DNA of 64,000 nt from Cyanidioschyzon merolae. Its lineage: Eukaryota. The translations under genes and the position numbers were made by a program. Under the pieces are notes generated by a model. That model worked only from the letters and a program-made list of their open reading frames with translations, had not been told where the DNA came from and ran no database searches. Positions within the stretch are counted from its first letter, which is position 1, and each line of letters begins with the position of its first letter. This document shows positions 821 to 64,000 of the stretch, in pieces. The stretch is from NCBI GenBank assembly GCA_000091205.1, contig AP006502.2. One strand, 5' to 3'.

Positions 821-1544
821 GTATTGAGCGCAATCAGTGCATGTTCAGGCAAGATTTGCAGCAAAGCAGCACCACTGGGGAACGAGCCGCTGTCCAACGC
901 TTTGTGAATGCTTGATCAAACGCTTAAATGGCTCAACGAAATGTCGGTGCATGAAGCTGTAGGTGCAGTGTGCAGACCAGCGAGACTCGAAGGGGATTGT
1001 GGTGGCCTCAGTGCAGTTCGCACTCGCATGCGGGGACCCAGCGAGCCTCTATGGCCTTGGAGCAACTGGTACCAACTCTTTACCATCGAGAATCGTGTCG
1101 TTTTTGTTTTGGTGTTGATTTGGGAACCGGGTACCCGACATATTATCCATGTCTTATGCCTGGAGTAAACAAATTCAGAGCCCGCGTCTACGTAACCAGC
1201 CTAGTGCTACCCGAAAATTCTGACAAGCGTCTTTATCGTGTATCAAGAGTTTCCGCACGAGGTTTCCAATGCGCTTTCGGACGGAGAACCGAAGCGATAG
1301 GCGTTCTGGTAGCTGTCGCGGGGGCATCATCGACATATGCTGAAAGAATAGAAACTCTGCTCTGACTAGCAACTCGATAACAGTTTCGTTTGACCTTGAT
1401 TGTAAGCGCAGAAATGGGGAAAAGTTTCAGTATCTCGGAAAGTTTACCTTTTAGGCGGAAGGTCCCGCGAGCCGGACGAGTCTTCGGGGCTAGCTAGTGC
1501 TTCATGCTTCCTCCAGTGGCGGGTTCTTTAAAGAAACCTGAGCT

Positions 1545-1910
1545 ACTCGTCCGTAACGCAATTCAATCTGGGACTAGGAGCGTGTATGCTGCGTCTGGGC
1601 GTCGCCCTGGTCGCAGTGGACGCCCAGTATATCGCACCGTGCCGCCGCAGGCAGTGCGTCTCTCTGCGCAGCTTCCAGGCTCCTAGAATGATTAAGTACT
1701 CCGACTCCGTGTCCGATGAACCACGCCTCGAGCCGACGCCCTCAGTGGTATGCCAAAGCCGTTCTGTCTCCGTGCAGCACCTGCTTCGGCGGTATATAAG
1801 CGCTACGGCGGGTGCTCAAAACAGCTAGTCGGCGCACTATAGAACATACGAAACGACCAGTATATCAGAGAGCATGTATGGGTGATAGAACTTGAAGGTA
1901 GATGCTTCAT
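1545..1910. repeat. ~370-bp dispersed repeat, copy A (paralogue of 13291-13665, ~70% identity, same orientation)
   Basis: Shared blocks include gctactcgtccg, cccagtatatcgc, ccgcaggca, gcaggctcc(c/t)agaat.atgat.tactccgac.ccgt, ctcgagccg, gccgttctgtct.cgtgc, acgaaacgac.a.tatatc and atgcttca. Confidence 0.6.
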
Positions 1911-2362
1911 GATGGACGCTTTCCCGAAAGCCATTATCCTTTCCGAATCCTCGGATCCATGGTCAGTCTAAACATTCTCTCATCTGAAAAGAATTCGACA
2001 TACGCTGTGTAAATGTTCAAAGCGAGCACCATATGAACTGGAACGCTACCAATGGCTAGAACGTGTGTCGAAGGAGACCTATTCATCCCGAGGAAGGTCT
2101 CGTGGGGTCTTCTCGGGCGCTCCGGCGCACGCGCCAAGCAAATTTCGAACCTCCGCTTGTGCTTATACAAGCATGGGAGACAAGCACTTCATGAACACCA
2201 CCATGACGAAGCTTTACCGCTACTAAACGAAAGTAGACTGGTTAAACTTGACGAAAGCGTTCAGGTTCCTTTGTGCAATTCATCAGACTGCTTACTTTTG
2301 GGTCCCGTCCCAGGTTTACGGCTGCGGAGCGAGCACTTACAAACGGGACTCATCCAGCGCGT

Positions 2363-4120
2363 ATGGCCCCCGAAAGTGCACAAGTAACCAGTTTCGACGC
2401 GTTCCTCCATAGTGTGAGTGCTTGGGAGCACCTTCTCGAGTCTGATGCTCAGGAAACAGCGCAGAAGCAACTGAACGTCCTTCGACGCTCAGTGCCGCGC
2501 CAGCGGACCCCGAACGAACCAACACCCAGAGACGCAGCACACGCCCTCGAGACACTCTGGCTGAAGAAACACGCTGCCCTGTGGTATCGCTGGACGCCGA
2601 CCCTATGTCAGGGAGTGCGAAACGGACGCGCTGCTTCCTGCTCGCTGCTGTGCTTCCTTTTCGACGGGGCGCAGCGTTTCCTGTACCCGCTCTGTGGGAT
2701 GGTACTCAAGGCGCCACGACGTGCGACACGCATGGAAGGAGCACCAAACGCAACCAGCACCATGAAGAGCGCTCGACAGCAGACGTTTGTGCCCATGTCG
2801 GAACGGTATCGGTTGCATCTTCAACTGGTCTACGATACACTGGTCGAAACGATGCAGGCGCAGCTGACCCAAGCTGCAACTGCATTGACCGGTATAGTCA
2901 GCAGGGGAGGTGTGGATTCCAGCACCTCGACCTGTCAGCTCATGCGCTGCCTCGGGGTCGTGGTGCAGAATACGCCATCACGCTGTCTCCCGAGCGCACA
3001 GCTCAAGACCGCCGGGAACCTGCTCTGGGACCAGTACGCGCTTTCACTTGGGCCAGAGCTTGAAACGCTTCGAGCAGCGGCCATCTCCTGTCTGAAAAGT
3101 ATTCATGATCGTCTACAAACCATACCGCCGCTGGAGCAGCTTTTAGCGAATCCGCTGCGCTGGAATGATGCGCACGTGGTTTCGTTCGTGGAAGCCATGC
3201 TAACACTACGCATGCGTCATCTGAGCAGGGTCCAAGAATCCGCACCCGACAGCACTGCCGTCGACGAACTGGTACTTGCGATGGTCGAGCATCATTTTCG
3301 AAGTGCATCGACGAGTCCAGCGCTGCGACTACAAAGCGCCCGTCTCTTGCGCTTGCTGTTGCGCTCGCGGCCATCGATCGCAAGTTCGCGTAACGCACTC
3401 CTGTTCCGCATGTTGAAGGATCCCTTCCACGCGGTACGTGTGGTTGCCATCGCCTGTTTGAGTCAGCCTGGAATTGGAGCCGCAGGCACGCCGCTCTTTC
3501 GAGAGCTCGAGGCGTTAACCGCTGACCCCATTGCATCGATGCGCGCCGCTGCGTGTACCGCATTAGGGCGGCTCGCGGCGGATCCAGGCGCGTTCATCCC
3601 TCAAACAGAACCTACGATCATTCTCGATAACGACTGGAATGCATTGAAAGGGCGTGCGATGGATCTTCTACTGAAGCGACTCGAAGAAGATCCAAATGTC
3701 CATGTTCGAGCAGCTGCCGCCTACTCGTTGAGCCAGTTCTGCACGCATGCAGAACGCTTGGCGGCGCGACTCCCCGAGAGGATCATCGAATTGGCGATTG
3801 ATGAACTTCGACGTGCACCATATTCGAGTCAAGCAAGCGCGTACTGTCGCCTTCTGGGTGCGTCCGTCCCGTCCGAAGCACAGCGAACACAGATCGTTGT
3901 GGTGATCGGGGATATTGTGCAGGGTGCACGTCGAAAGGCGCTGCGCCAACAGGCGATCCTGGCGCTGGCGAAGCATGTACGACCTGCCGACGGGGCGGCA
4001 CGCTGGTCGCTTGCACAGAAGCCGGACAACGAACTGGACCTGGATCAGTGTGGACGAAACGCTGCGCCAGCGGAAACGCCACATCAGGATGCGGTTGCTT
4101 CGAATCGGACGGGAGCGTAG
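2363..4120 (+). CDS. HEAT/ARM-repeat protein, function unassigned
   Basis: 585-aa ORF from the first ATG (the track start at 2273 is GTG). Repeated DP..VR.AA..AL helical repeats such as DPNVHVRAAAAYSL, DPIASMRAAACTAL and DPFHAVRVVAIACL. No specific family recognised. Confidence 0.45.
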   Translation: MAPESAQVTSFDAFLHSVSAWEHLLESDAQETAQKQLNVLRRSVPRQRTPNEPTPRDAAHALETLWLKKHAALWYRWTPTLCQGVRNGRAASCSLLCFLFDGAQRFLYPLCGMVLKAPRRATRMEGAPNATSTMKSARQQTFVPMSERYRLHLQLVYDTLVETMQAQLTQAATALTGIVSRGGVDSSTSTCQLMRCLGVVVQNTPSRCLPSAQLKTAGNLLWDQYALSLGPELETLRAAAISCLKSIHDRLQTIPPLEQLLANPLRWNDAHVVSFVEAMLTLRMRHLSRVQESAPDSTAVDELVLAMVEHHFRSASTSPALRLQSARLLRLLLRSRPSIASSRNALLFRMLKDPFHAVRVVAIACLSQPGIGAAGTPLFRELEALTADPIASMRAAACTALGRLAADPGAFIPQTEPTIILDNDWNALKGRAMDLLLKRLEEDPNVHVRAAAAYSLSQFCTHAERLAARLPERIIELAIDELRRAPYSSQASAYCRLLGASVPSEAQRTQIVVVIGDIVQGARRKALRQQAILALAKHVRPADGAARWSLAQKPDNELDLDQCGRNAAPAETPHQDAVASNRTGA

Positions 4121-5187
4121 CCGCTAAGCACCGCCCGCTCGTTGGGATGCCACGTTCGGAGTGCGTGTATGGCGTTGCTGCTTGCTTTGCTTCGTCGTGG
4201 ACGGCAAGCGCTCAGAGGCACGTCATCAAGGATGCGGAGCGAGCTGTTCCGACATGTGCATGTCGCTGGTACGACTCGGCGGGTCGCGTCGACGTGTCGT
4301 TGGTTGCATCGAGCGGGGGTAGGTTCGGCATGCGCATGCGTCTCGCATACGAGTCGGCGTAGGGGATCCATGTGCAGCTGCTCAGCCTCGAACAACTCTA
4401 TGGAGCATCGGGATTGAGCGCCGAACACCGTTAGCGGCATGCAAAACGCGCATTCAGTCCAGCGGCGTTGGGCGGGCATATCTGGGAGGGAACGTACGCT
4501 CGTTAACTCGCTGGCGGACGCGACCCTACTGTGGCTATGGCGGCTCTTCGTGCGCGCCAACACGGACCCAGTACAGCACGCATCGCGTCGGTCGCCAGAA
4601 AGACGATATCAGCGGTTACTGCCCTACCAGAAACGCTTCGAGCTGCAAGGTTAGCGCACCCAGTCGCCGTCTCCGTGCCCTGCCTGCCTCGCAGAGGCAC
4701 TGACGTCGTTCACGCAGAGACGCGCACGAGGGTACCGCAAAGCGCCTCCGAGCCCGTTCAGCGAACTTTTTAGAATGGACATACCAAACCTGGTGAATAG
4801 ACGTAGATCAACCACACCTGTGTCCCCTGCAGGAATACAGAACTGGAGCTCTCCTCGGAGCGTTCATGATGCGCACGACTCGACGAGTGCGATTCCGTAT
4901 TGGACGGCGGGACGGCTGGCGAGGTGTGCACCAGCAGCGCTCATGTCTGTTATATTCGTAATTGTCCTTATTGTACAAAGAGCTCCCTATTCACCATCAG
5001 CTGATGCGCGCGCATCTACAGGAGACGCCGCCGCCGCCGGCCGCGCCGTCCCGACGCGATCGTGGCGTGCGAGCCGTCCGAGTGCGCGATGCCGCCCAGC
5101 ATCGTGCGTGGGTGCATCCCGCTCCAAACGTTGGGCGCTCAACGGTAAGGGACGACCCTGGTCAGTTTAAACCGCGTTGCAGACGAT

Positions 5188-9006: not shown

Positions 9007-10896
9007 TCAAATGGCTGAACGCGAACGGTCCACAGACTCTTGATCCGGAGCTTGTCGCTGCTCCATCCACTGAATATACGCTGTCTGTTGCTTGCTGTGC
9101 TCCACAATGTCCGGGAAGCGGAGCCCAACCTGCAGCTCATCTTGAGGGCACCGAGCCCGCTCAACAAGAACAACAACTGTATCAGGCACGTCCAGCATCG
9201 CTTGCCAGCCATCCGTTGCGTTCACGGAGAAGAGGCCGCCCCAGACACTTCGTTGCTGATGCATGACCACGAATTCCAGCTGCAAACGAATATCCTCCGG
9301 CTCGCGTTCCAGCCCTGGTCGATGCTCGAGTTTCACAAGCAGACCTCGAGACTCGGATCGCGCCAGTGGCCCCGCATGCGCAGCGACTCCATCGCTGGGG
9401 GTCGGGCGTTGCGCCCGAGGCGGCGTCTTCCTGTCAGGTATCCGCGGCGAACGCGTTGCGTCCCAGGAGCAGGCATCCATCCATTGAACTTGCCACCGCA
9501 AACCGCATACCTTCAACGTGCCGGGAACACGGGCCCATGCAAATGGTGGTAGCACCGCACATTTCAGCGGTATAGGTGCTTGGTCCTCGGGAAGCGCCAC
9601 CAACATCGTAGTACCAGCGGATTCGCTCCACGCACTGCATACCGCGTCGGATGCATCTATGACGGAGAGCGCGCTCAGCGCTTCCCAGCGCTCTTTCCAT
9701 TCCTGGTGTGCACGTAAGAGCGACTCAGCGCTGCTGGGGAGGGCGTGTGCGCGCTCCGCATAATGCCCTGCAATGTCCTGACGATACGCCAGCAGGCGAC
9801 GTTCCATGTCGCGGAGTAACCGCCGCAGATGCATACGCATGTCCACGAGACGCGTACGTGCTGCCTGCTGGGACTGGATCCGCTGCTGGACCTGGGTATC
9901 GATCTGCTCGAGCACGGAATCCATGAAACGTTGAATACGCTGGGAAAGCGCTTCACGCTGCCGCAGAAAGAATCGAGATGTCTGCTCGTACTCGAGCAGT
10001 TGGCATTCGAAACGCTGAAGGCGCTCGCGAAGCGGTTGCAAACCCTGCTCTAGCTCAGATGCCAAACTTTGGAGTCGCTCGTGGGCGCGTTCCAGCGGAT
10101 GGTAGCGATGCTCGCACTCGGGCAGCGGAGCACAGCACTCCGCACATATGAAGCGATTGCAGCGTTGGCAGTAATACCGCACAGCTTCATGAGCGTGGAC
10201 CGAGCAGCACCATAATGTTGCCTTCAGCGCTGACAGGGATCGCGGTGCACCTGGATTCTTTTCCGCTGGCTGCTCTGGCAGCGCCAGTTTCGGGCCTCGG
10301 CGGATGTTCTGCAGCAGCTCGCGGAGACAACGCACCAGCACCAGTTCGTGACGAGCAACGGGCTGTCGACAGTGTGGACACGGTTGTGTGCTCGCGATAC
10401 GACGGTGTCCCTGCGACGACGCCGTGCTGGGCTCTCGCCACCACTTCGTCGCACACCGTTCGCAAAACAAGACCCCGCACGAAGGACAGAGAAGCGGCTC
10501 GCGAGGGAGCTCAGCGCAAATAAGGCAGTTCAAATGGTGTTCAAGTTGTGTCGTCCAGGGGTTTGCGTTCGTCGAGGTCACAGGCGGCTGCCCCGTCGCG
10601 TTCAGGTCGGTGGGGTGTACCTCCTCGAGGGCCAGGCACTGCTCGCTCGGCTGTGAAAGAACGGTACCAGACGACCTGTCCCCTCTTTCTTCCACTCTAC
10701 ATAAACGTGCTAGCTGTGCAACAAGTTGCATCCAATCAAGCGACTCGGGTGTGCGGTCTGGGGCGAGCTCCTCGCTGTCGGCGCTCAGCGGTGGGCTGCC
10801 CGCTCTCGGCGACACCAGCCCACTCAGTGCTGTGTCGCTGAGCCGGTCGTCACCGACAGAGCATTCCAACGACGACAGGTCCGTATCACTGTCCAT
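9007..10896 (-). CDS. RING / B-box / coiled-coil E3-ligase-like protein with a possible C-terminal MATH(TRAF)-like domain
   Basis: C3HC4 RING (CLICAELPREPLLCPSCGVLFCERCATKWW...CPHCRQP). B-box-like zinc finger (CCSVHAHEAVRYYCQRCNRFICAECC...CEHRYH). Long heptad coiled coil. ATG at 10896. Confidence 0.6.
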   Translation of the reverse strand: MDSDTDLSSLECSVGDDRLSDTALSGLVSPRAGSPPLSADSEELAPDRTPESLDWMQLVAQLARLCRVEERGDRSSGTVLSQPSEQCLALEEVHPTDLNATGQPPVTSTNANPWTTQLEHHLNCLICAELPREPLLCPSCGVLFCERCATKWWREPSTASSQGHRRIASTQPCPHCRQPVARHELVLVRCLRELLQNIRRGPKLALPEQPAEKNPGAPRSLSALKATLWCCSVHAHEAVRYYCQRCNRFICAECCAPLPECEHRYHPLERAHERLQSLASELEQGLQPLRERLQRFECQLLEYEQTSRFFLRQREALSQRIQRFMDSVLEQIDTQVQQRIQSQQAARTRLVDMRMHLRRLLRDMERRLLAYRQDIAGHYAERAHALPSSAESLLRAHQEWKERWEALSALSVIDASDAVCSAWSESAGTTMLVALPEDQAPIPLKCAVLPPFAWARVPGTLKVCGLRWQVQWMDACSWDATRSPRIPDRKTPPRAQRPTPSDGVAAHAGPLARSESRGLLVKLEHRPGLEREPEDIRLQLEFVVMHQQRSVWGGLFSVNATDGWQAMLDVPDTVVVLVERARCPQDELQVGLRFPDIVEHSKQQTAYIQWMEQRQAPDQESVDRSRSAI

Positions 10897-11055
10897 CAGG
10901 TAGAGTGGGAGCCTGACGGGCTGTTTGCCGCACCAAGCGACGTTCTAAACTCGAACGACGTCGGGCGTGTACAGTAGTGGCGAACCGTACGCCCTGGACA
11001 AGAAGTCTTCAACCGAGGTGCAGACGCCTCCCCGTCTTTTTGGACCGGCTACCTA

Positions 11056-12801
11056 CTACTGATTCCAATTTTTCTCATATAATTCAACTTTTAGAGGTTG
11101 TCTACTAAAGTTCTCTCTTGTCCATTCTGGAGGTCTTTTCTCCAGCACCGCACATTTCCCTATATTGACAGCGGCGTTAACGTCACGGTTCACAAACTCC
11201 ATCCGTTTCTTGCCATCACTGGTTGTACTTCCTAATGCAAGTAGTCCACGAACTTTCGACATCCTTTCCATATGCTCTTCCGTCAGCGGTCCATACCTTT
11301 TTATATCCTCAGGGCTCCTCTGGCACTTTTCTATCCCGACCCCTTGAAGTGTGCACGCCACTTCATGGTGTGTATACGATGTGCGAACCTCACCTACAAG
11401 TATTGTAACGAAACGCCTTGCGCACTCCGTGTACGTTCTCGTCGTTGGAGCTGGTGTAGTTCCTTTTTGGGTCATCCAGTGTCCTGCTCCGTATGTTGCT
11501 ACGAGCCTCTGACCTTCATTCCCCTTCAAGGCGCTCAACTCATTGAAAAAATTCGCGAACGCCCCCTGCTTCCCACAATACAAATTCATTCGCAAACGAG
11601 CCCACCGGGGCTTGGCATACTCCTCCCACAGCGCATCCCAATGAGCGACGCGAACTTCCATAAACTCCCGAAAAGCTTTAAAATCCGCTCCTCGGCTTGT
11701 CACCTCGCTCAAAGCTTCCAGGTGCTCGTTCATTCCTGAATTCCACGTCTCTATTTTCTTCCTTGCATTCATGATTCCCGATTCTCGATAGTATCTCGCT
11801 CTCGAGAACCTCAAAAGACGCATGTCTTTCTGACGTAAGTTACCATCAGTGCCATCTTTCGCACGCTTCGGTGCTGCGATGGTTATGATATTTGTGCTTC
11901 CTGGGTCCGCACCAACGGCAAATTCGTTATCCTGCACTTTCTGCGTCTCAGGACCCGCCTCTTTTTTTTCTTCATGCTTTACCGCGTCAACGACGAAGTC
12001 GTTATCCTCCACCTCTTGCGTCGCAGGATCTGCCTCCTTCTCATCTTCATCCTTCGTCACGTCAACGACGAGGTCGTTATCCTGTACTTTCTGCATCGCA
12101 GGTTCCGCATCCTTCCCATCTTCATCCTTCGTCACGTCAACGACGAGGTCGTTATCCTGTACTTTCTGCATCGCAGGTTCCGCCTCCTTCTCATCTTCAT
12201 GGTTCGCCGAGGGCGGAACTGGACGATCTGTCTTCAACTGCCGATAGTGTACACACAACGCTACTCCATCGGTTTCGATCATCCTAGTGAACAACTTTTG
12301 TTTGCTCACTTTGAGACGTTTGAAATCGAAGATATTCTTCCAGTACGCCTCCTGGTTTTCACCGGAGAACTCCTTCCTGCTAACATTGAACTCCAGACTG
12401 ATCTCCTTAAAGATGCCGTAAAGGACGCCGGAGGCGATACTCAAAAAATGTGACTTGATGTTGTACATTGGAACCACGTTGAAGCGCTTACCCATCAGGA
12501 ACGCCTTCCGTCTCTCCCACTCTTTATTTGTCTCCTCACGCAGCTTCATCTCTGCCTTGCGTTCGAGCTCTCGGTCCAGAAACACGAAATAGCGCAGGAC
12601 GAGGCAATAGTATCTTTCCTTATGTTTTTTCAACTCTGATATCTTGTCTGTTGGATTCGCCAACCCCAAGACTGCACGATGCTCTCGTATAACCGCACGG
12701 ATGACAGAAGCTTCATTCGTGCTCCTGCGTGACGCCTTCTCATAGACGAATTCGATCTCCTGCTCATGCTGGCGATCGTTCGTGATGCCATTGATAATCG
12801 T
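11056..12801 (-). CDS. TnpB/Fanzor-like RuvC nuclease (OrfB_Zn_ribbon type); no ATG start and likely decayed at the 5' end
   Basis: RuvC-I-like [15 protein letters not shown]. TnpB TS..C-type motif [14 protein letters not shown]...C. RuvC-III hallmark [17 protein letters not shown]. The open frame runs from a stop at 12802 to 11056 with a TTG at 12669 and no in-frame ATG before residue ~40. Confidence 0.6.
11926..12210. repeat. tandem 75-bp repeat (3.8 copies) inside the Fanzor-like ORF
   Basis: Units at 11926, 12001, 12076 and 12151 all start gttatcct. They encode acidic 25-aa units ([25 protein letters not shown] x4) just N-terminal of the RuvC-I motif. Copies 3 and 4 are nearly identical. 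Confidence 0.85.
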
Positions 12802-13257
12802 CTATATCCTCTTGGGAGAGATGCCCGGGTAGAGTGCAAACACGGCGCGTATCATGAGACGTTCGAGGTTCATTGTCAAATCGTTCATCAGGTTTCTGAG
12901 GTACTTTTCGCCCCGTAGTTGTAAATATTCCCGTCATCCTTGTATCGAGTACCGTTGGGGCGGGATTCTGCGTAATTTTAGTGCAGGGCATGCACTCGCT
13001 CATTTCTCCTCGACGTTTCCCTCGTACCAAGCATCAGGTGACGAATATAGGTCTTGTCGAAGAACTCGTCCGGAACCTCGACCGTTTCCATGTGCGTCAC
13101 GTCGCGATACATCTCCCTTACCAATTGCATCAGTCCTGACGACGCCTTTACAATACTCTTGGAGTACGAATCGACACGGTTTCTGATCGCATCTCGCAAC
13201 TTTTCCTTGTACGGATCCTTGATATGTGCAAGAAGGTTCCCCAGGCTTGTGGTTCAT
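12802..13257 (-). pseudogene. frameshifted ORF fragments directly upstream of the Fanzor-like frame (probable decayed N-terminal region)
   Basis: Three minus-strand ORFs in three different frames abut and overlap (13257-13000, 13199-12978, 13030-12764). A single frameshift near 12790 would join ...[14 protein letters not shown] to [12 protein letters not shown].... Confidence 0.4.
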
Positions 13258-13290
13258 GCTCCCCCATTGTCTAGTGTTATCGTGAGATCT

Positions 13291-13665
13291 AAGCTACTCG
13301 TCCGCAGTGCAGTTCATTCTGGGACCGTGAACGGGATCATTGGGCGTAACGCTGGTCCCAGTTGACTCCCAGTATATCGCTTCACTGCCGCAGGCAATGA
13401 GTCTATCTTTACAGTTTGCAGGCTCCCAGAATAATGATGTACTCCGACCCCGTATCGAGTGGGTCACCCCTCGAGCCGGCGCCATCTGTGGTACGGCAAC
13501 GCCGTTCTGTCTGCGTGCGGCGACCGCATCGGCGCTTTAGGCGCCATTGCGCACTACCAGGGCAAGCAATCGGCACACGATTGAACGTACGAAACGACGA
13601 TTATATCCGAGAAGGAGTACGGATAATGTTACTTGGAAGTAGGGTATGGATCGATGGATGCTTCA
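13291..13665. repeat. ~370-bp dispersed repeat, copy B (paralogue of 1545-1910)
   Basis: See copy A. It lies immediately 5' of the Fanzor-like ORF fragments. Local GC-rich hairpins gcggcgaccgc and ggcgctttaggcgcc. Confidence 0.6.
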
Positions 13666-15735
13666 CCGCGCACTGAAACAAAGAACAACGAAAAGAAAAG
13701 GCGTACAATCGGAGAAGGTTGGCCTCTGAAAGTGTGTTGTCAACTAAAAAAACTTCCATGCGCCAAGCAAGGCGATGCGGTAAGTTCGTTCGGACACAGC
13801 TACGCATTGATCAAGGTGGCAAGAGAGAATGGTGCTGTAGCCGGTTCGTGTGCGGAAGTTGCGTTCGGTCTGGTCCCTGCGGATTTGAGGACAGTGTCCC
13901 TTCATTACCGCTCGTAGGGACGGTGTGGAAACTTCACTTGATGTGGCTTGATTTATCGAATTTCTTAGAGAACATCCGGTAGGGAGTGGATTGATTACAA
14001 GTCAGTCTTGTAGAGAGCGTTGGCTACGTTCTGTTTTGGGTATGTGTATGTGATGTACAGGATAGGGAATACTGGGCATGTGCTTCATTCACTTGCTGAC
14101 CGTAAAATGACTAATTCGTAAACTTCATACCTGTTTTGCATGCGAGCACTAAGATCTTCACATCATTCCGCAACGTGTCTGCGATCGACCGAAAGCATGC
14201 TTTCAAGTACCTGCATGAGAAACAAAATAAAACGGATTGCGCCGGCACACGAGGTCCAGAGTTCACTGGTACGCGTATCGAGAGAACACAACGCAGGCGC
14301 TGTACCAAGGAGATTAAAATGGAACATTGACCTGCGTTCTCTGTCCTTACGTTTTGGTGATTCGCAAGTTTCTTATCCGATCTACAGCCTCGATATTCCA
14401 AGTGCAGCAATAGGGGATTCCACATTCACATCTCGTTCTAGGATTTTCGGCGGTGGTTTCGAAGTGGCTGCATCGACGCAGCCCCGCTCGAATGCATTCG
14501 ATCACCGGCATCACGGGGATTTGTGGCGTCCTCTCAAATAGATTCCTACAGAACCGATACGATTGTCTATTTCATGGGTGCGAGCCTCGGTTCTTTCCCT
14601 GACTTTACGTACAGGACGCACAAACCATGCATTCTTCAAGATTTCGATCTCACTCTTTCAAGGCAACACCTAAGCAGAACGACATGCTTCCCGAGGGTGA
14701 TGAGAAAAAGAATATGGCTTCGTCCTTTGAGTACTTGTTCACAAGCTCCTGCCAAAAGTTCATGGAACTTCTTGCGTCAAATAATCGATTCCATTCGAAC
14801 GACAAAGCCCATTTTCATCGTTGCAAAAGAGGAACCAGTATTCAACAGCAGCATGCTAATTTACGAGAGGTATACGCCAAGAGGCCCTTGTCTTCAAGCT
14901 TTGCACTAGAGAAAAGTCCTGGACTCGCTGCGCACGCATTATAGCAATCGCTACCACTAGAGGCCGAGTCACCAATTCTGGAAAAGGGAACGTAAGCGGA
15001 TTGCAATGCCTCGACTTGATCTCCGACCTGGATTTTCCGGACGACACTCGTTTCATCATTGACAAAATCGCGTTCCATGAAGCCTTAATCGACAGGAACA
15101 GCTCACGCTTGCTTGCGCAACGGACAGGGTAATTGTCAATGGCCTCACCGAGGAAGAGCCCATGGATGTAGGGTACGACACCTTTGTCTCGCGGACCTAT
15201 GACGGCACTGAGGGTACCGTCTGCACCCGTCATGCGCACGCATCGAGCGATGAAGCCAGCGTTCGCGCGCTCCAAGACGGCTCCCTGAGGCGGACGGCTG
15301 CTGGTCTTATGCGAACCCCTGAGAACAATCAAGTGCCACCGCTGCGAAGGGCGCACAGAAGCTGTATTCAAAGACGCTTGAAGTGTCAAGCGAAGCCTAG
15401 ATCGCAATGACCATGAGTGCATGAAACGCGTCGACAACGCCGGGAATCGGCGTGATCAGAAGTTCAACGCTGCCGTGTACTTCCTTGGGCCTGTGACAAC
15501 GCCACTGGAGGATACAGAGACATCGGCATATTCAGAGCCGGAGCTTAGAGCGCGAGGAAACGGAAGCAGTCACAGAAACAGCGTGCCGCGCTTCGTGTCG
15601 GTGAGAAACGGAAGAAACCAAAACTGTAGAGAGCACATCCGAACTCGCAAACCAGACCTTTTCTATTCATGTCTGACACGAGTGTAACTGCCTGTTTGTG
15701 CTGACCCTGCACGTGTCGCGCTCGAGTCGCTCACG

Positions 15736-15740
15736 AAAAA
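15736..15740 (-). terminator. Pol III T5 terminator downstream of tRNA-Val
   Basis: aaaaa on the plus strand is TTTTT on the minus strand, ~10 nt 3' of the tRNA end. Confidence 0.5.
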
Positions 15741-15749
15741 GGGAATTTG

Positions 15750-15823
15750 TATCGGCGGCGCGACTCGAACGCGCGATCTTGTGCGTGTGAAGCACACGTC
15801 ATAACCAACTAGACCACGCCGAC
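15750..15823 (-). tRNA. tRNA-Val (anticodon CAC)
   Basis: Reverse-complement GTCGGCGTGGTCTAGTTGGTTATGACGTGTGCTTCACACGCACAAGATCGCGCGTTCGAGTCGCGCCGAT+A folds as a cloverleaf. Anticodon stem TGTGC/GCACA, loop TTCACAC. T-arm GCGCG-TTCGAGT-CGCGC. Close to eukaryotic tRNA-Val-CAC. Confidence 0.85.
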
Positions 15824-52329: not shown

Positions 52330-55300
52330 GAGCTCGACGCTGAACTCCTGGGGAACTGTGTACGGGGCAAGAACGCGAACCTGCTCCCTGCGCCACACGC
52401 CAGCAGTTCGCAGCAACAGGTGGCATGGTGTCTAGGTCATGGGGACTGGACTCTACCGCGGCTCGATCTAGACATTCCGCAACAGACTTGGAACTATGAA
52501 CGTGATGGGGTATAAGTTGAGCGATATGATCCATACAGAGAGCGGAGGAGTACGCGAAGCGCAGCCATTGCGTAACGGACGACTTGAATCGATCGATATG
52601 AGCGGGTAACTAATCAGAAATGCGATCGGAATACTGAGCGAGTGATGATTCGGGTGCGAGTATTCCCCCAATAGACTCCAACATGTTCATGTGATTGGGT
52701 AACTCGTCGGGGGTATGGTGCGAATAGAGAGCCAAAGAGTGCGAAAGTGTTTCTGGTGATGATTCCCCAATAGAAGCAGGAGCGTGGTAAACTTTGTGTC
52801 CTCGTAGCCAGACTCTTATGCCGAATGCTTGACATTTTTCGAGAAAGCTTCAGAGCAGCTACTGCTCATGCTCGCAACGCGATAATTTTCCTGCTCTGGA
52901 GCGAAGAGGAAACACTCGAGAGCTAATGCGATCACAAGGGAACTTGAGCATGCACCGCATACACTCGGATTGGATGGTGTTATAGACACAGCGTGCCGGC
53001 ATTGTACGCAGAGCAGCAAAATCCCGAATACCTGCACCAGCACGCACTTTTCGTTTCCGTTCGTTTCTCCGCGCAGGTATTCAAGAAAACGACTGTCTCC
53101 TGTAGAGTGGAGAACGTTTGCCAAAGTGCTTCATGCTTTCAGTGGTAGCGTGCAAGCATACTGGGCTCACTTCCACGAATTCGTCATGCTGCAGTAACCA
53201 GGTAGATGAATCGCGCTTCTCGTTGTCCTTGTTCTGAACGTGGCGTACTGAAAACAGATCCCGTTGAATTCTATCTACAGAAATGTCTCCTCGTGAGCAA
53301 AGCCCATTCCATTTTTTTCTGAGAAATTCTATAAAACAGGCCGGAGCATATGACGCTTCCATGTCGTTGATGCGAACGGTGATGACGAGAAGCGGACAGA
53401 CAGAGAAAAACAAACCTCTATGCGGGACCATCGCGTATTGAACAAGACGCATTCGATTACGCCATGAAAGAGGAACGCATGCTGTACCAGAGACAGGTTT
53501 TCGTGTTCCTCACTGAGACCTGTTTCGTGAGAAATCTTAGACCCGTGTATGGGTGAACAAAGAGCAGCAATCCGTTGTTCTTGAACGAGATACAAGCGAG
53601 CATGGTGGCAAAAAAAACTGCCCTGGTGGCGATTCAGTCGATTGGTCACGTACCAGTCGCCAGTCGGACAGAATCGTTGAACACTTCCTCCTTTGTCAAA
53701 TCATGCCGTGTCGTCCACTTCGAATATTCTCCTGTCCCGCTCTTAGACAGCGTCAGTTTCCTTCACTCAGAAACTATCACAGATCATGCAGTTGAGACTG
53801 CGGTTGAGCTCCTCTTCGATTTGGATTATTCTCCCTGGCTAGATCCATTCAAAGGCGTCTTTTCCGTTTGCAAACGCCATTTCTGCGCACGCCGATCACT
53901 AGAGGAGTCCTTTGCATCCGCAAAACCGAAAGATTCAGTAAGGCATGAAGAATCGCGTAACTTGTGAATCGAGAACATCGCTCCTAGTCACACTTGCCTT
54001 CACGCTCCTTGTCAAGCGACCCATCGGACGCGTTCCGTACGCAGGGCTGCTAATTATCCACGTTCTTCGGAATTTTTTCAATGAAATCTTCGCAGAGCAG
54101 CATATATGATGCTCGGGGCTGTGGACGCAAATCGGTTTGGTCGAAGGTTCATAGATTCACATACACGAACACGCTTCCAAGCATCCCTTGAAGCGCTGCC
54201 GCGCCGCCTCGGCGACGGAAACAAATGTAACCGTTCAGGTGCCAGAAAGCATCGAACCGAGCTCAATAGTCATACGCTGTTCAATGTCGTGCAATTCAGT
54301 CTGCACACCCTATAGGCGTTGCACACTTAGCTTACTAGATCAGATAAGTTGAGAATAGTGTGCGGAATTCCTGGGCTGTAACCGGAGGCAAATAATCAGC
54401 TATGGGCCGGAGAGTTCCCAGTGGTTGCCAGTTCGGATGCGACGTCACGATAAAGACGCGAGTTGTTTCAGATCGTCCAAGCTCACTAGCTGCCCTTGGC
54501 CTCGGACGGACGGGTGTCGTATCCAAACGATACGTGAAACTTGATGGCTCCTTGCGCTGCATCTTGCAGTACAAGGTTCTTATGAAAAGAGTCCTCCCGA
54601 TCAGAGCAGACTTCCTCCCAGAATCCGAGCGCCCTCACCCCCTCAAGCATCTGTTCTGTGTGTGGTCCCGGTATCTCAGCTCAAGGCCGATGATATCAGC
54701 GCAGAGAGTTGCGAACTCTATGAACTGATCATTGAGTTGCACCTGATCACTGCGATTGAAAATGTAGCACTGGGACAACTTTAGAAAAGATCATTGGTGG
54801 AGCTCGTTCCCGACTTCTCGTGTACAGGATGGCAATGAAAAGAAGTTTGCATGAACGATTGAGACCAACAGAATATCCATATGTATGCCTCTCGTGAGAA
54901 CTACGCCTCAGTCGAACAACGAGACTCATTTTCAATCCTTCACCATCGATGAAGGGCAAGACACTCCGGTGGCCGTGGATCCCACGTTGCGTGGCGTTAT
55001 AGCCATCGCCATGCCTTTCAATCAAGGGTGACGCAGCACAAATTTGAACGGAGTGCAGCTGAAGCTGAAAAACTTCCACAGAGCTCGTTGTCGTCCGGGG
55101 TCGGACATGTTGGACAGCAGGAGCCGACGAGCAAATGGAATCGCGGCGTCAGGATCCATCTCGATGCTCTGAGCATCGTGTCCTGCAGAGGAGCATGCTT
55201 AGTGCGCTTCATTCTGAGAGTCTATGCGCGTCGAAGTTGCTCACATGATCGAAACCTGGCAGGAATGCATGGTATTGCGCTGGAGTCGCCCAAAGCTTTG

Positions 55301-56908
55301 GGTTTACGAACACAGGAAATGAGTATTCTCAAAATTCTTCTATGATTTCGAAAGGGAAATTACAGAAAGTTCACTTCGGTTGGTGGCAGCCGCTGACGCG
55401 CTACATGCTGTAGCGCGTCAGGATCGCTCGCCTGCTCCTTCAACAAGTGCGTACCATGAGTCATGCATCGATTCTATATGATTCCTTTCGATGCGTCCGG
55501 GACGACGTACAAGCATCACGAGCACGCAGGTATTGGTAGGAAAGAAAGCGGTGGTTCAGCCCCGGATGCACAAGATGGCGTGCGGCAAGCTTACCGAACG
55601 TCAGATGACGAGACGTTCCTATGTATGAGGCTTGATTCGATGCGATACGAATAGCAACCATGCACACAAGAACGTTCTACATCGAGGCTTGAACACCTCA
55701 ATCAACATCTGGGAACGAGTTGTACTTCCGGAGCGTACTGCGGCTTCGTGTCGAGCGATCATGAAACGTACTCGTTTCGTGCTCAGTATGAGCATTGTGC
55801 TGAATTGCTGCAGACTTTCGATGAAAATCTCGCCGGTCAAGAGAGATGGCGCAGGATTCTCGTCCAGAGCAAGGCACTGGTACGAAAAGGTCAGCAATCC
55901 AGAAACGCTGGTGCGCCATCCACAGCGATACCGGGAACGATATTCCTCGGTTAATGATGTACGATAATAGTATTCTCTTATTCGATGTTGCTGGGGTTTG
56001 TTGATGATCACGCTTTCGTGCAAACAGCGCATCCTTCGAGGACTCCATGCAGATCCCGGACTCCGCTCGTGTGAAAATCGGCGCTGCAACGTCCCATGTA
56101 GTGAGAAACTGCCCAGATAGAGCGTCCGATTTCGCTCAACTTGGTGTACACGAGTAGTTTCAACGGCAGGCATGGTGCACCAGGCAGCCTCGTCCAGCCT
56201 CTAGCCATACTATTGCGAAACCATTTATACAGGACAGAACAGCGCTCGCCCGGAGCCTAGTCTTGCGGCTGTAGACCGCTGAGCAGGACGATCGTGTGCA
56301 ACGACTTGAACGAGCGCGCCGGGTAGAGCTGTAGCATTCCAAGTGCGTTTGACGTTAAAATCCCATTAGTTCCTGGATATTCATCGGTTCAGTGCAATCC
56401 GGTGGTGCATATACGATCGTTGCGGGGCGATACTACACAGGACGCGTCTTGCGAGGACAAGCCATCTGGTCTCGTATGGTGCTATTTTGAACCTGCTTAA
56501 TGGTCTCGATGAAATTCGTGGCGCTCGCGGGTACGATATCCCACAGCAGTCATTCGCTGCATCAGGCTAAAGGTTTACAGTTTCGTGCGAAGCTACGTGC
56601 GCCTTGGATGAAGAGCGCACTCCGCGTCAATCACCACGGGTTTCACCCTCTAGAATACGATACATCCTATGCATTCGTTTAATATCGACAGTTCAGAACG
56701 AAGCTCGATCCCCGTGTTGCACACTCGATAGAGTAAGAAGCGCACAGTTGCGTCAATAGCGATATGCGTGATGCTACCCCTAACGACGCGAGGTGCACAG
56801 CGCATGGACATTGTCGTCCACTGATAGCGCTCTGGTTGTTTCAGCGCCGGGCGCTTCTGCCATAATGCGCGCCCTCGGGCATTGAGCAACGAAACGCTCT
56901 GGCACGAG

Positions 56909-63420: not shown

Positions 63421-63426
63421 GGTATA

Positions 63427-63499
63427 CACCGCCAAAGGGGCTCGAACCCTTGACCCGTGGATTAAGAGTCCACTGCTCTACCGACTGAGCTATGGCGGT
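63427..63499 (-). tRNA. tRNA-Lys (anticodon CUU)
   Basis: Reverse-complement ACCGCCATAGCTCAGTCGGTAGAGCAGTGGACTCTTAATCCACGGGTCAAGGGTTCGAGCCCCTTTGGCGGTG. A-box TAGCTCAGTCGG. Anticodon stem GTGGA/TCCAC with loop CTCTTAA. B-box GGTTCGAGCC. Close to eukaryotic tRNA-Lys-CTT. Confidence 0.9.
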
Positions 63500-64000
63500 A
63501 GTAGGAGATCTGGCGAGAATTTGATATATAAATAGGTTGGGGGTTTTGCGCGCAATTTGCGTGGCAAACGCACTGCTGCCAGCCATGATGTTGTCTCTTT
63601 TGTCTAGTATTCCATAGATGCGCGCCGTTGACGTCCGTGCGTTTGCGTTTTCCGGCTTTTGAACTCGATTATGTTCCAGCCCCGCTGCATGTAAAAGAGT
63701 GCTTTTTCGCAGTTCGTAGTGGGGGATCTGAATCGCTATGCAATTTTTTGTGTAGATCGTAGACGAATTGCCAGTAAGATATATTCCTCACTGAAACGTT
63801 CAAAGAGTACTGCATTCCTCCTTCAGTTCAATCATATCATAGTACACAGATAATTGAGGAATCTTGAAAGATGACAGATGCACTCCGCGCCAAAAACCGA
63901 TATTCCCACAGCGTCCATGCGGTCAACGGTAGACAACGACGCGTCGATCGCCTTACGAAAAGCGAAACCGACGATCATCGTCACCACGTGCGCATCAGAT

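Follow-up and report, generated by a model that had tools for sequence, protein, structure and literature searches.

A TE-N2_CMe copy in a gene spacer of Cyanidioschyzon merolae, probably a non-autonomous retroposon derived from a LINE tail

Introduction

What kind of element occupies the spacer between a Naa10-like and a HEAT-repeat gene in Cyanidioschyzon merolae, and how did it arrive there? We analysed a stretch of 64,000 nt from chromosome 20 of strain 10D (contig AP006502.2; hereafter the window), three of whose proteins are identical to C. merolae 10D BAM83311.1 (N-acetyltransferase ARD1-like), BAM83313.1 and BAM83325.1. The window has a G+C content of ~55% and long intron-free ORFs with ~1-kb spacers between them. 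A preliminary description had noted a repeat in this spacer and read it as either a deleted or non-autonomous mobile element or an independent non-coding RNA gene. Both neighbours that it named are present as ORFs, and two tRNA genes lie further along the window:

284-820: GNAT/Naa10-like ORF, flanking the spacer
2363-4120: HEAT-repeat ORF, flanking the spacer
15749-15823, minus strand: tRNA-Val(CAC)
63426-63500, minus strand: tRNA-Lys(CTT), the only one of the two tRNA genes above the Rfam gathering score

Two published surveys bear on this repeat. CMe-1A, a Fanzor1 element of C. merolae, was described with ~150 copies, a 3169-bp consensus to which they are ~80% identical, and no terminal inverted repeats (TIRs); its 5′ 635 bp are TE-N2_CMe, a 635-bp repeat of ~70 copies, the classification of which was left as unknown (Bao and Jurka 2013, Mobile DNA 4:12, PMC3627910). 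An earlier account listed 253 copies of an interspersed repeat of 3.2 kb whose ORF resembles WSSV WSV486, evidently the same Fanzor element as CMe-1A, together with 26 non-LTR-like retroelements, three of them with an intact reverse transcriptase (RT) ORF (Nozaki et al. 2007, PMC1955436).

Identity and limits of the spacer repeat

A repeat search of the window recovered collinear pairs of pieces at 71-85% identity (1509-1574/13260-13325, 1596-1635/13341-13380 and 1644-1796/13387-13539), which blastn joins into a single match of 1493-1921 with 13245-13663 (70.4% over 432 nt, E 2e-48). This bears out the earlier observation that the spacer repeat (copy A) recurs at a second site (copy B). There is no third copy in the 64 kb, as a profile of A-type copies matches only 1342-1990 and 13241-13750. 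The limits first given for copy A, 1545-1910, proved too narrow: a discrete unit of ~1343-1994 emerges from an alignment of nine related copies on metagenome contigs of close relatives (1343-1994), from the profile (1342-1990) and from the published CMe-1A consensus (1343-1984). The features of the locus and of the second site are:

1330-1342, plus strand: left target-site duplication TCGACATATGCTG, matching the right copy at 12 of 13 positions
1343-1994, plus strand: copy A, a complete copy of TE-N2_CMe and probably a short retroposon, 652 bp
1442-1795, plus strand: decayed frames homologous to the C-terminal extension of a LINE ORF (tblastn with P0138 and P0153)
1987-1994, plus strand: degenerate A-rich tail AAAAGAAT behind the conserved terminal motif ...TAAACATTCTCTCATCTG (tails of 20+ copies aligned)
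1995-2007, plus strand: right target-site duplication TCGACATACGCTG, matching the left copy at 12 of 13 positions
11056-13240, minus strand: Fanzor1 pseudogene of the CMe-1 family, TnpB-like, with an ORF at 11056-12669 and frameshifts and stops to 13240
13241-13753, plus strand: copy B, a 5′-truncated LINE tail of a sister subfamily, ending in AAAAAAA (13746-13752)

Copy A starts at 1343 with GAAAGAATAGAAACT, of which the opening GAAAGAACAGAAACT... is common to other copies, and closes with ...TCTAAACATTCTCTCATCTG, after which the short A-rich tail runs to 1994. Both its 5′ start and its 3′ end are found in the copies L041, L030, L026, L047, L079, L054, L057 and L061. Two other delimitations were considered and rejected. 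The 5′ boundary of the similarity between copies A and B (~1495 and ~13250) is not the end of the element, since L007 and the A-type copies place the start at 1343, and copy A does not lack the last ~90 nt and the tail, since the A-type alignment reveals a different but alignable terminal segment. In one TE-N2 copy (L054, ~100-300), an (ATCT/ATCC)n microsatellite has expanded inside this terminal segment.

A search of the flanks for target-site duplications, as the preliminary description had advised, found 13 nt that abut the 652-bp unit on both sides. The match at 12 of 13 positions was attained by 1 of 2000 shuffles of two 40-nt end windows.

Copy A belongs to the Repbase family TE-N2_CMe, both by its match to the consensus and by its host. 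In blastn, window positions 1343-1984 match the reverse complement of positions 2-636 of the CMe-1A consensus (taken from supplement 2 of PMC3627910) at 81.5% over 644 nt (E 7e-179). Since this figure is close to the ~80% published for CMe-1A copies in the same organism, copy A is a TE-N2_CMe copy of typical age. It differs in being 652 bp long instead of 635 bp, and TE-N2_CMe was published in the opposite orientation, without an A-tail, with no target-site duplications reported and unclassified (PMC3627910). To that description copy A adds its A-rich tail, the duplication of 13 bp and its homology to LINE copies that encode an RT. In itself, copy A is an ordinary, already catalogued repeat copy and carries little weight as a feature of the window.

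Homology to a non-LTR retrotransposon

The full-length Fanzor homologue P0002 lies on contig L007. Here, 1.3 kb upstream of the Fanzor and on the opposite strand, the 3′ half of the repeat is found again, with a 255-aa ORF in front of it. This ORF has homologues that form a multi-copy family of 39 clusters and overlap proteins with Pfam RVT_1 (P0155, P0158) and the box LLFADDVVLL. Pfam gave nothing usable for the 255-aa ORF itself, and the assignment of its family to reverse transcriptases is drawn solely through the homologues with precomputed RVT_1. The C-terminal part of these homologues contains a C-x2-C...H-x4-C knuckle (HCPCCGNETPETLTHLGLQCPRWKQER). A further copy, L010, has the non-LTR RT motifs PGIDGI, YRPIRL, FIDFQKASDTV, GLRQGDP and FADD in order, and is closest, among solved proteins, to R2 proteins and to ORF2p of human LINE-1 (E about 1e-14). 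No Pfam endonuclease domain was detected in the LINE copies examined, all of which are degenerate; in L010 (700-1000), L045 and L055 the first APE-like motif (IGFASWNICGI, including SWNICGI) is all that is left of it, followed by a Lys/Glu-rich stretch.

Some members of this LINE family read through into the repeat, with frames that have their counterparts at 1442-1795 in copy A and at 13389-13639 in copy B. The C-terminal LINE proteins P0138 and P0153 find copy A in tblastn with E-values of 5e-12 and 4e-11, at 38-40% identity over ~120 aa and with an in-frame stop. The small ORFs at 1504-1686 and 1586-1828, previously judged spurious, are indeed not genes: they are decayed C-terminal frames of the parent LINE (tblastn with P0138, E 5e-12), and Pfam returned nothing usable for the small ORFs within the repeat. 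At the nucleotide level, nhmmer with a LINE reference assembled from L010 and L007 aligns 1310-1921 with LINE positions 3700-4290 (E 2e-31) and, for copy B, 13401-13754 with positions 4028-4384 (E 9.5e-36). Copy A, read on the plus strand, shares homology with the final ~650 nt of an RT-encoding non-LTR retrotransposon family, and this strand is the sense strand of the parental LINE tail.

Similarity to the sequenced LINE lineage is weak over the first ~100 nt of the unit, where the local score is 39 and shuffles average 24 (sd 4). The last 35 nt contribute most of this score, and the parent lineage is therefore not among the LINE copies found. A RIME-like origin of these 100 nt at the 5′ end of the LINE was rejected, as the two sequences are not similar (score 24, shuffle mean 25).

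State of copy A in close relatives

The insertion is present at the same place in the Naa10-HEAT spacer of all six long metagenome contigs of relatives. Synteny, which the preliminary description had proposed as a check, thus recovers the insert in every relative and yields no empty site; these six relatives are ~99% identical overall. Among the six near-identical strains, the element differs at 4-10 of 653 positions, compared with 1 of 521 and 1-3 of 368 in the flanking spacers. As the element is more variable than its flanks, it is under no visible constraint and gives no sign of a present function. The best explanation is that copy A is an old, inactive insertion and now a passive part of the spacer that separates the Naa10-like gene from the HEAT-repeat gene. 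Three contigs of a variant strain stop near the start of the element (L082 at ~window 1383, L083 at ~1390, L084 at ~1256), a pattern typical of assemblies that break at a repeat with many copies.

Copy B and the adjoining Fanzor1 pseudogene

Copy B corresponds to positions 147-647 of the A-type profile (nhmmer, E 2.5e-100) and has a 3′ terminus in common with L007 and L009. Its last 90 nt are of the LINE (B) type and it is only 74% identical to the TE-N2 consensus, so that copies A and B represent sister subfamilies and are not duplicates of each other. The 5′ end of copy B is fused head-to-head with the 5′-truncated Fanzor1 pseudogene, which consists of a 537-aa open part and an N-terminal extension interrupted by stops and frameshifts. 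This pseudogene is 72% identical to P0002 in protein and 84.6-88.4% identical to the CMe-1A consensus in DNA; Pfam gave nothing usable for the Fanzor-like ORF. The acidic linker of the pseudogene consists of 75-bp tandem repeats (11913-12206), the number of which varies among homologues (P0006 compared with P0007).

At the junction, CMe-1A consensus positions ~495-1079 are missing, a stretch that includes the inner portion of the TE-N2 module, the ~270-bp leader in full and ~45 codons at the start of the ORF. Through this loss the LINE tail is fused directly to codon ~40 of the Fanzor1 pseudogene; L063 has the same junction. No degenerate second Fanzor was found to the right of copy B (13700-15800). 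Two motifs beyond the tail of copy B (13783-13815 and 13893-13935, plus strand) resemble GTCGGACACGTGTCCTTCATCGATCGGTGAGG, which in other loci lies further upstream of the Fanzor leader.

Signs of retroposition across the family

The copies compared here were gathered through a metagenome scan with the Fanzor protein and are biased towards Fanzor neighbourhoods. Within this sample, ~20 distinct copies share the 3′ terminus ...TAAACGTnTTGTCnATG followed by A6-9 (for example window 13746-13752, L007, L009, L024, L028, L034, L039, L041 and L065). The 5′ starts of 39 distinct copies fall at profile positions 2-8, 25-27, 104-109, 142-147, 316, 365, 381-385, 399, 428-445 and 503, of which only 2-8 and 381-385 recur in many copies each. 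The start at 2-8 defines the ~650-nt unit, TE-N2_CMe, and that at 381-385 a unit of ~290 nt beginning with CCTCGAGCCG. The following copies of the shorter class, all from CCTCGAGCCG, suggest a second short master copy:

L024 568-856
L039 9482-9777
L060 1555-1815
L079 921-1214
L048 2515-2773
L059 2573-2828

Clear duplications were found around only four copies, namely copy A (13 nt), L009 (11 nt), L065 (14 nt) and L078 (10 nt); most other copies, and all composites of Fanzor with TE-N2, have none. L009 is a 770-bp truncated LINE among housekeeping genes with the duplication TCGATCACGCG. Three of the four duplications and many of the flanks that follow a tail begin with (A)TCG, which suggests a preferred nick site. 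A shared 3′ end with an A-tail, variable 5′ truncation and duplications together form the classical signature of target-primed reverse transcription, and the same 5′ start in different flanks points to a discrete short master mobilised in trans rather than to repeated random truncation.

Proposed origin of copy A

We propose that copy A is probably a short non-autonomous retroposon made of a LINE tail, mobilised in trans by the target-primed reverse transcription of a LINE. The reverse transcriptase of an autonomous relative would recognise the RNA of the TE-N2_CMe unit by its LINE-type 3′ end. In the C. merolae genome, the three intact RT ORFs among the 26 non-LTR-like elements (Nozaki et al.) could supply such partners. 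A nick at an A|TCGA-like site would open the genomic target, before insertion presumably a single TCGACATAYGCTG, and the RNA would be copied in place, leaving the A-rich tail at the 3′ end and the 13-bp target duplication. After insertion copy A would have decayed to about 81% of the family consensus. The shared 5′ start obliges us to assume a discrete short master copy, and several observations weigh against retroposition: the first ~100 nt align weakly with the LINE lineage, an identical 5′ start in many copies is not predicted by random 5′ truncation, the LINE copies examined yielded no endonuclease domain, clear duplications are confined to four copies and absent from those joined to Fanzor, and the deletion derivatives of Fanzor composites retain both outer ends, which fits a DNA transposon equally well. 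The likeness between copy A and the sequence beside the Fanzor1 gene at 11-13 kb is explained by the position of the LINE-tail module, which lies antisense at the 5′ side of CMe-1A.

Non-autonomous retroposons that are truncated LINEs without a Pol III head are known from trypanosomes (RIME with ingi, NARTc with L1Tc) and mammals (HAL1). Like these, the unit is short, consists of LINE sequence only, has a common 3′ end and duplications, and is presumed to be mobilised in trans by the RT of its parent. RIME and NARTc retain both the 5′ and the 3′ end of the parent, whereas TE-N2_CMe shows only a contiguous 3′ LINE segment; since its opening 100 nt have no counterpart at the 5′ end of the LINE, the unit is not RIME-like. 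With LINE-tailed SINEs it shares a 3′ region of ~290-550 nt in common with the LINE family and size classes of about 650 and 290 nt, but it differs from them in having no conserved 3′ stem-loop. Neither ARAGORN nor Rfam detected a tRNA-, 5S- or 7SL-like head in 1250-2100, and for this reason the unit is not a canonical SINE.

These results go beyond the published accounts cited here in two modest respects. TE-N2_CMe, unclassified in 2013, can be classified as a probable LINE-tail retroposon with an A-tail and 10-14-bp duplications, and the Fanzor1 element of C. merolae has an antisense LINE tail as its 5′ module.

Alternative explanations

The unit could instead be the 5′ terminal module of CMe-1A as a DNA-type Fanzor1 transposon, in which case solo copies would be left-end remnants produced by deletion, abortive transposition or recombination, and the LINE likeness an old capture. 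The unit is indeed collinear with the 5′ end of the published consensus (PMC3627910), composites collinear with that consensus occur at L023/26, L047/49, L054, L057 and L079, and copy B, L063 and L030 are internal-deletion derivatives with both outer ends. We nevertheless consider this origin unlikely. Copy A is abutted by its 13-bp duplication and shows no trace of a Fanzor leader or ORF, its A-rich tail lies on the strand antisense to Fanzor, and 5′-truncated tails of the family carry duplications of their own far from any Fanzor, as at L009. CMe-1A has no TIRs and its composites no duplications; the window contains no inverted repeats (seed 12, minimum length 40), and the unit has neither the TIRs nor the short duplication of fixed length that mark a MITE or a cut-and-paste DNA transposon. 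As first reported, no TnpB- or Fanzor-like coding sequence lies near copy A: the window matches in tblastn are 11107-13235 and a weak relic at 54900-55754, with no nuclease gene within 9 kb of copy A, and a profile of the Fanzor 5′ leader has no match near it. We also discarded a remnant of the leader upstream of copy A, for which the profile search was empty and the weak likeness is explained by a TCGA-type target. Of the two options that the preliminary description had joined, a non-autonomous element therefore stands, as a TE-N2_CMe copy, and a Fanzor that has lost its gene does not, given the duplication that abuts the unit and the missing leader and Fanzor remnants.

That the insertion was exapted as a regulatory or UTR element, on the 3′ side of the Naa10-like gene or the 5′ side of the HEAT-repeat gene, is very unlikely: its fixation at the same place in six metagenome-derived relatives says little because those relatives are ~99% identical overall, and the element shows more differences than its flanks. 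The same variation between strains counts against a dispersed independent non-coding RNA gene or a gene for the Fanzor guide (omega) RNA, a reading that we regard as highly improbable even though blocks such as ACGAAACGACCAGTATATCCGAGA are well conserved across subfamilies and Fanzor-bearing repeats are transcribed (Nozaki et al. 2007, PMC1955436). Rfam is empty for 1250-2100 even at E<=1, the minimum free energy is unremarkable (z-score -0.73), and in RNAalifold the best-conserved 180 nt of 23 diverse copies reach -1.45 kcal/mol with 5 pairs and virtually no covariation; the suggestion of an independent RNA gene thus finds no support. For TnpB and Fanzor guides, a conserved non-coding region just 3′ of the ORF is typical; the guide is encoded at the 3′ end of the nuclease ORF or overlaps it, on the strand of the ORF and beside the right end of the element. 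The unit resembles such guides in its neighbourhood only, in that one of its copies abuts a Fanzor1 gene; it lies on the 5′ side of Fanzor on the opposite strand, has no conserved structure, and also occurs alone with its own duplication. A separate region of ~125-190 nt after the Fanzor stop codon, with a hairpin at its end (CGTCGTTCGAnTTTnGAACG), is conserved in 48 loci and sits where an omega-RNA scaffold would be expected:

Window ~10934-11058, minus strand: conserved block after the Fanzor stop codon (also L007 8260-8420)

In the window, this block ends ~40 nt from the start codon (10896) of a RING-finger gene at 9007-10896.

Junctions between LINE sequence and the Fanzor leader

No repeat of C. 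merolae is more abundant than CMe-1A, an element that lacks a transposase, TIRs and target-site duplications. An antisense LINE tail as its 5′ module raises the question of how a transposase-less element of the TnpB family reached 150-250 copies in a very compact eukaryotic genome. Across 71 Fanzor loci, all fetched through Fanzor and hence a biased sample, the boundary between LINE-derived sequence and the Fanzor 5′ leader falls at practically the same nucleotide, ...|ATCGCGCTCGGTGAGCGCACC, which lies about 330 bp before the P0002 ORF starts. The junctions are of three types:

LINE poly(A) end, same orientation: L022, L024/25, L028, L031, L039 (junctions at L022 ~1650, L024 ~856, L028 ~1050, L031 ~5613, L039 ~5673)
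Full-length LINE 5′ end, opposite orientation: L012/16/17, L055 (junctions at L012 ~1277, L055 ~966)
TE-N2 5′ end, opposite orientation, the arrangement of CMe-1A: L023/26, L046, L047/49, L054, L057, L058, L079 (junctions at L026 ~5630, L047 ~5672, L079 ~5668)

At ~13 other loci the leader runs on into different upstream sequence. The one-nucleotide junction could reflect a leader terminus that resembles the preferred target of the LINE, or a real coupling of LINE and Fanzor. A functional tie of CMe-1A to a non-LTR retrotransposon, either as an antisense passenger on the LINE tail or through LINE RNA copied into breaks in the leader, seems to us rather improbable. If it were a passenger, the Fanzor gene may have been spread by reverse transcription; if breaks were involved, one fixed nucleotide of the leader may have been preferred. 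Truncated Fanzor copies in this biased sample lack 5′ ends and not 3′ ends, and truncation at the 5′ side is at odds with a simple reverse transcription that starts at the TE-N2 tail of the composite. Should the coupling be real, copy A would be the 'bare' mobilising module.

Other arrangements were seen in the same loci. TE-N2 units lie between two inverted Fanzor units, head-to-head, in L061 (1-4923) and L064 (2449-8092), and palindromic partial duplications of Fanzor, with a junction near residue 433-444, occur in L052, L053, L065, L067 and L069. In the window itself, a second, strongly decayed Fanzor-like relic (54900-55754, plus strand) lies in a stretch of lower G+C at 53-56 kb, is 29% identical to P0002 residues 459-747 and contains no long ORF.
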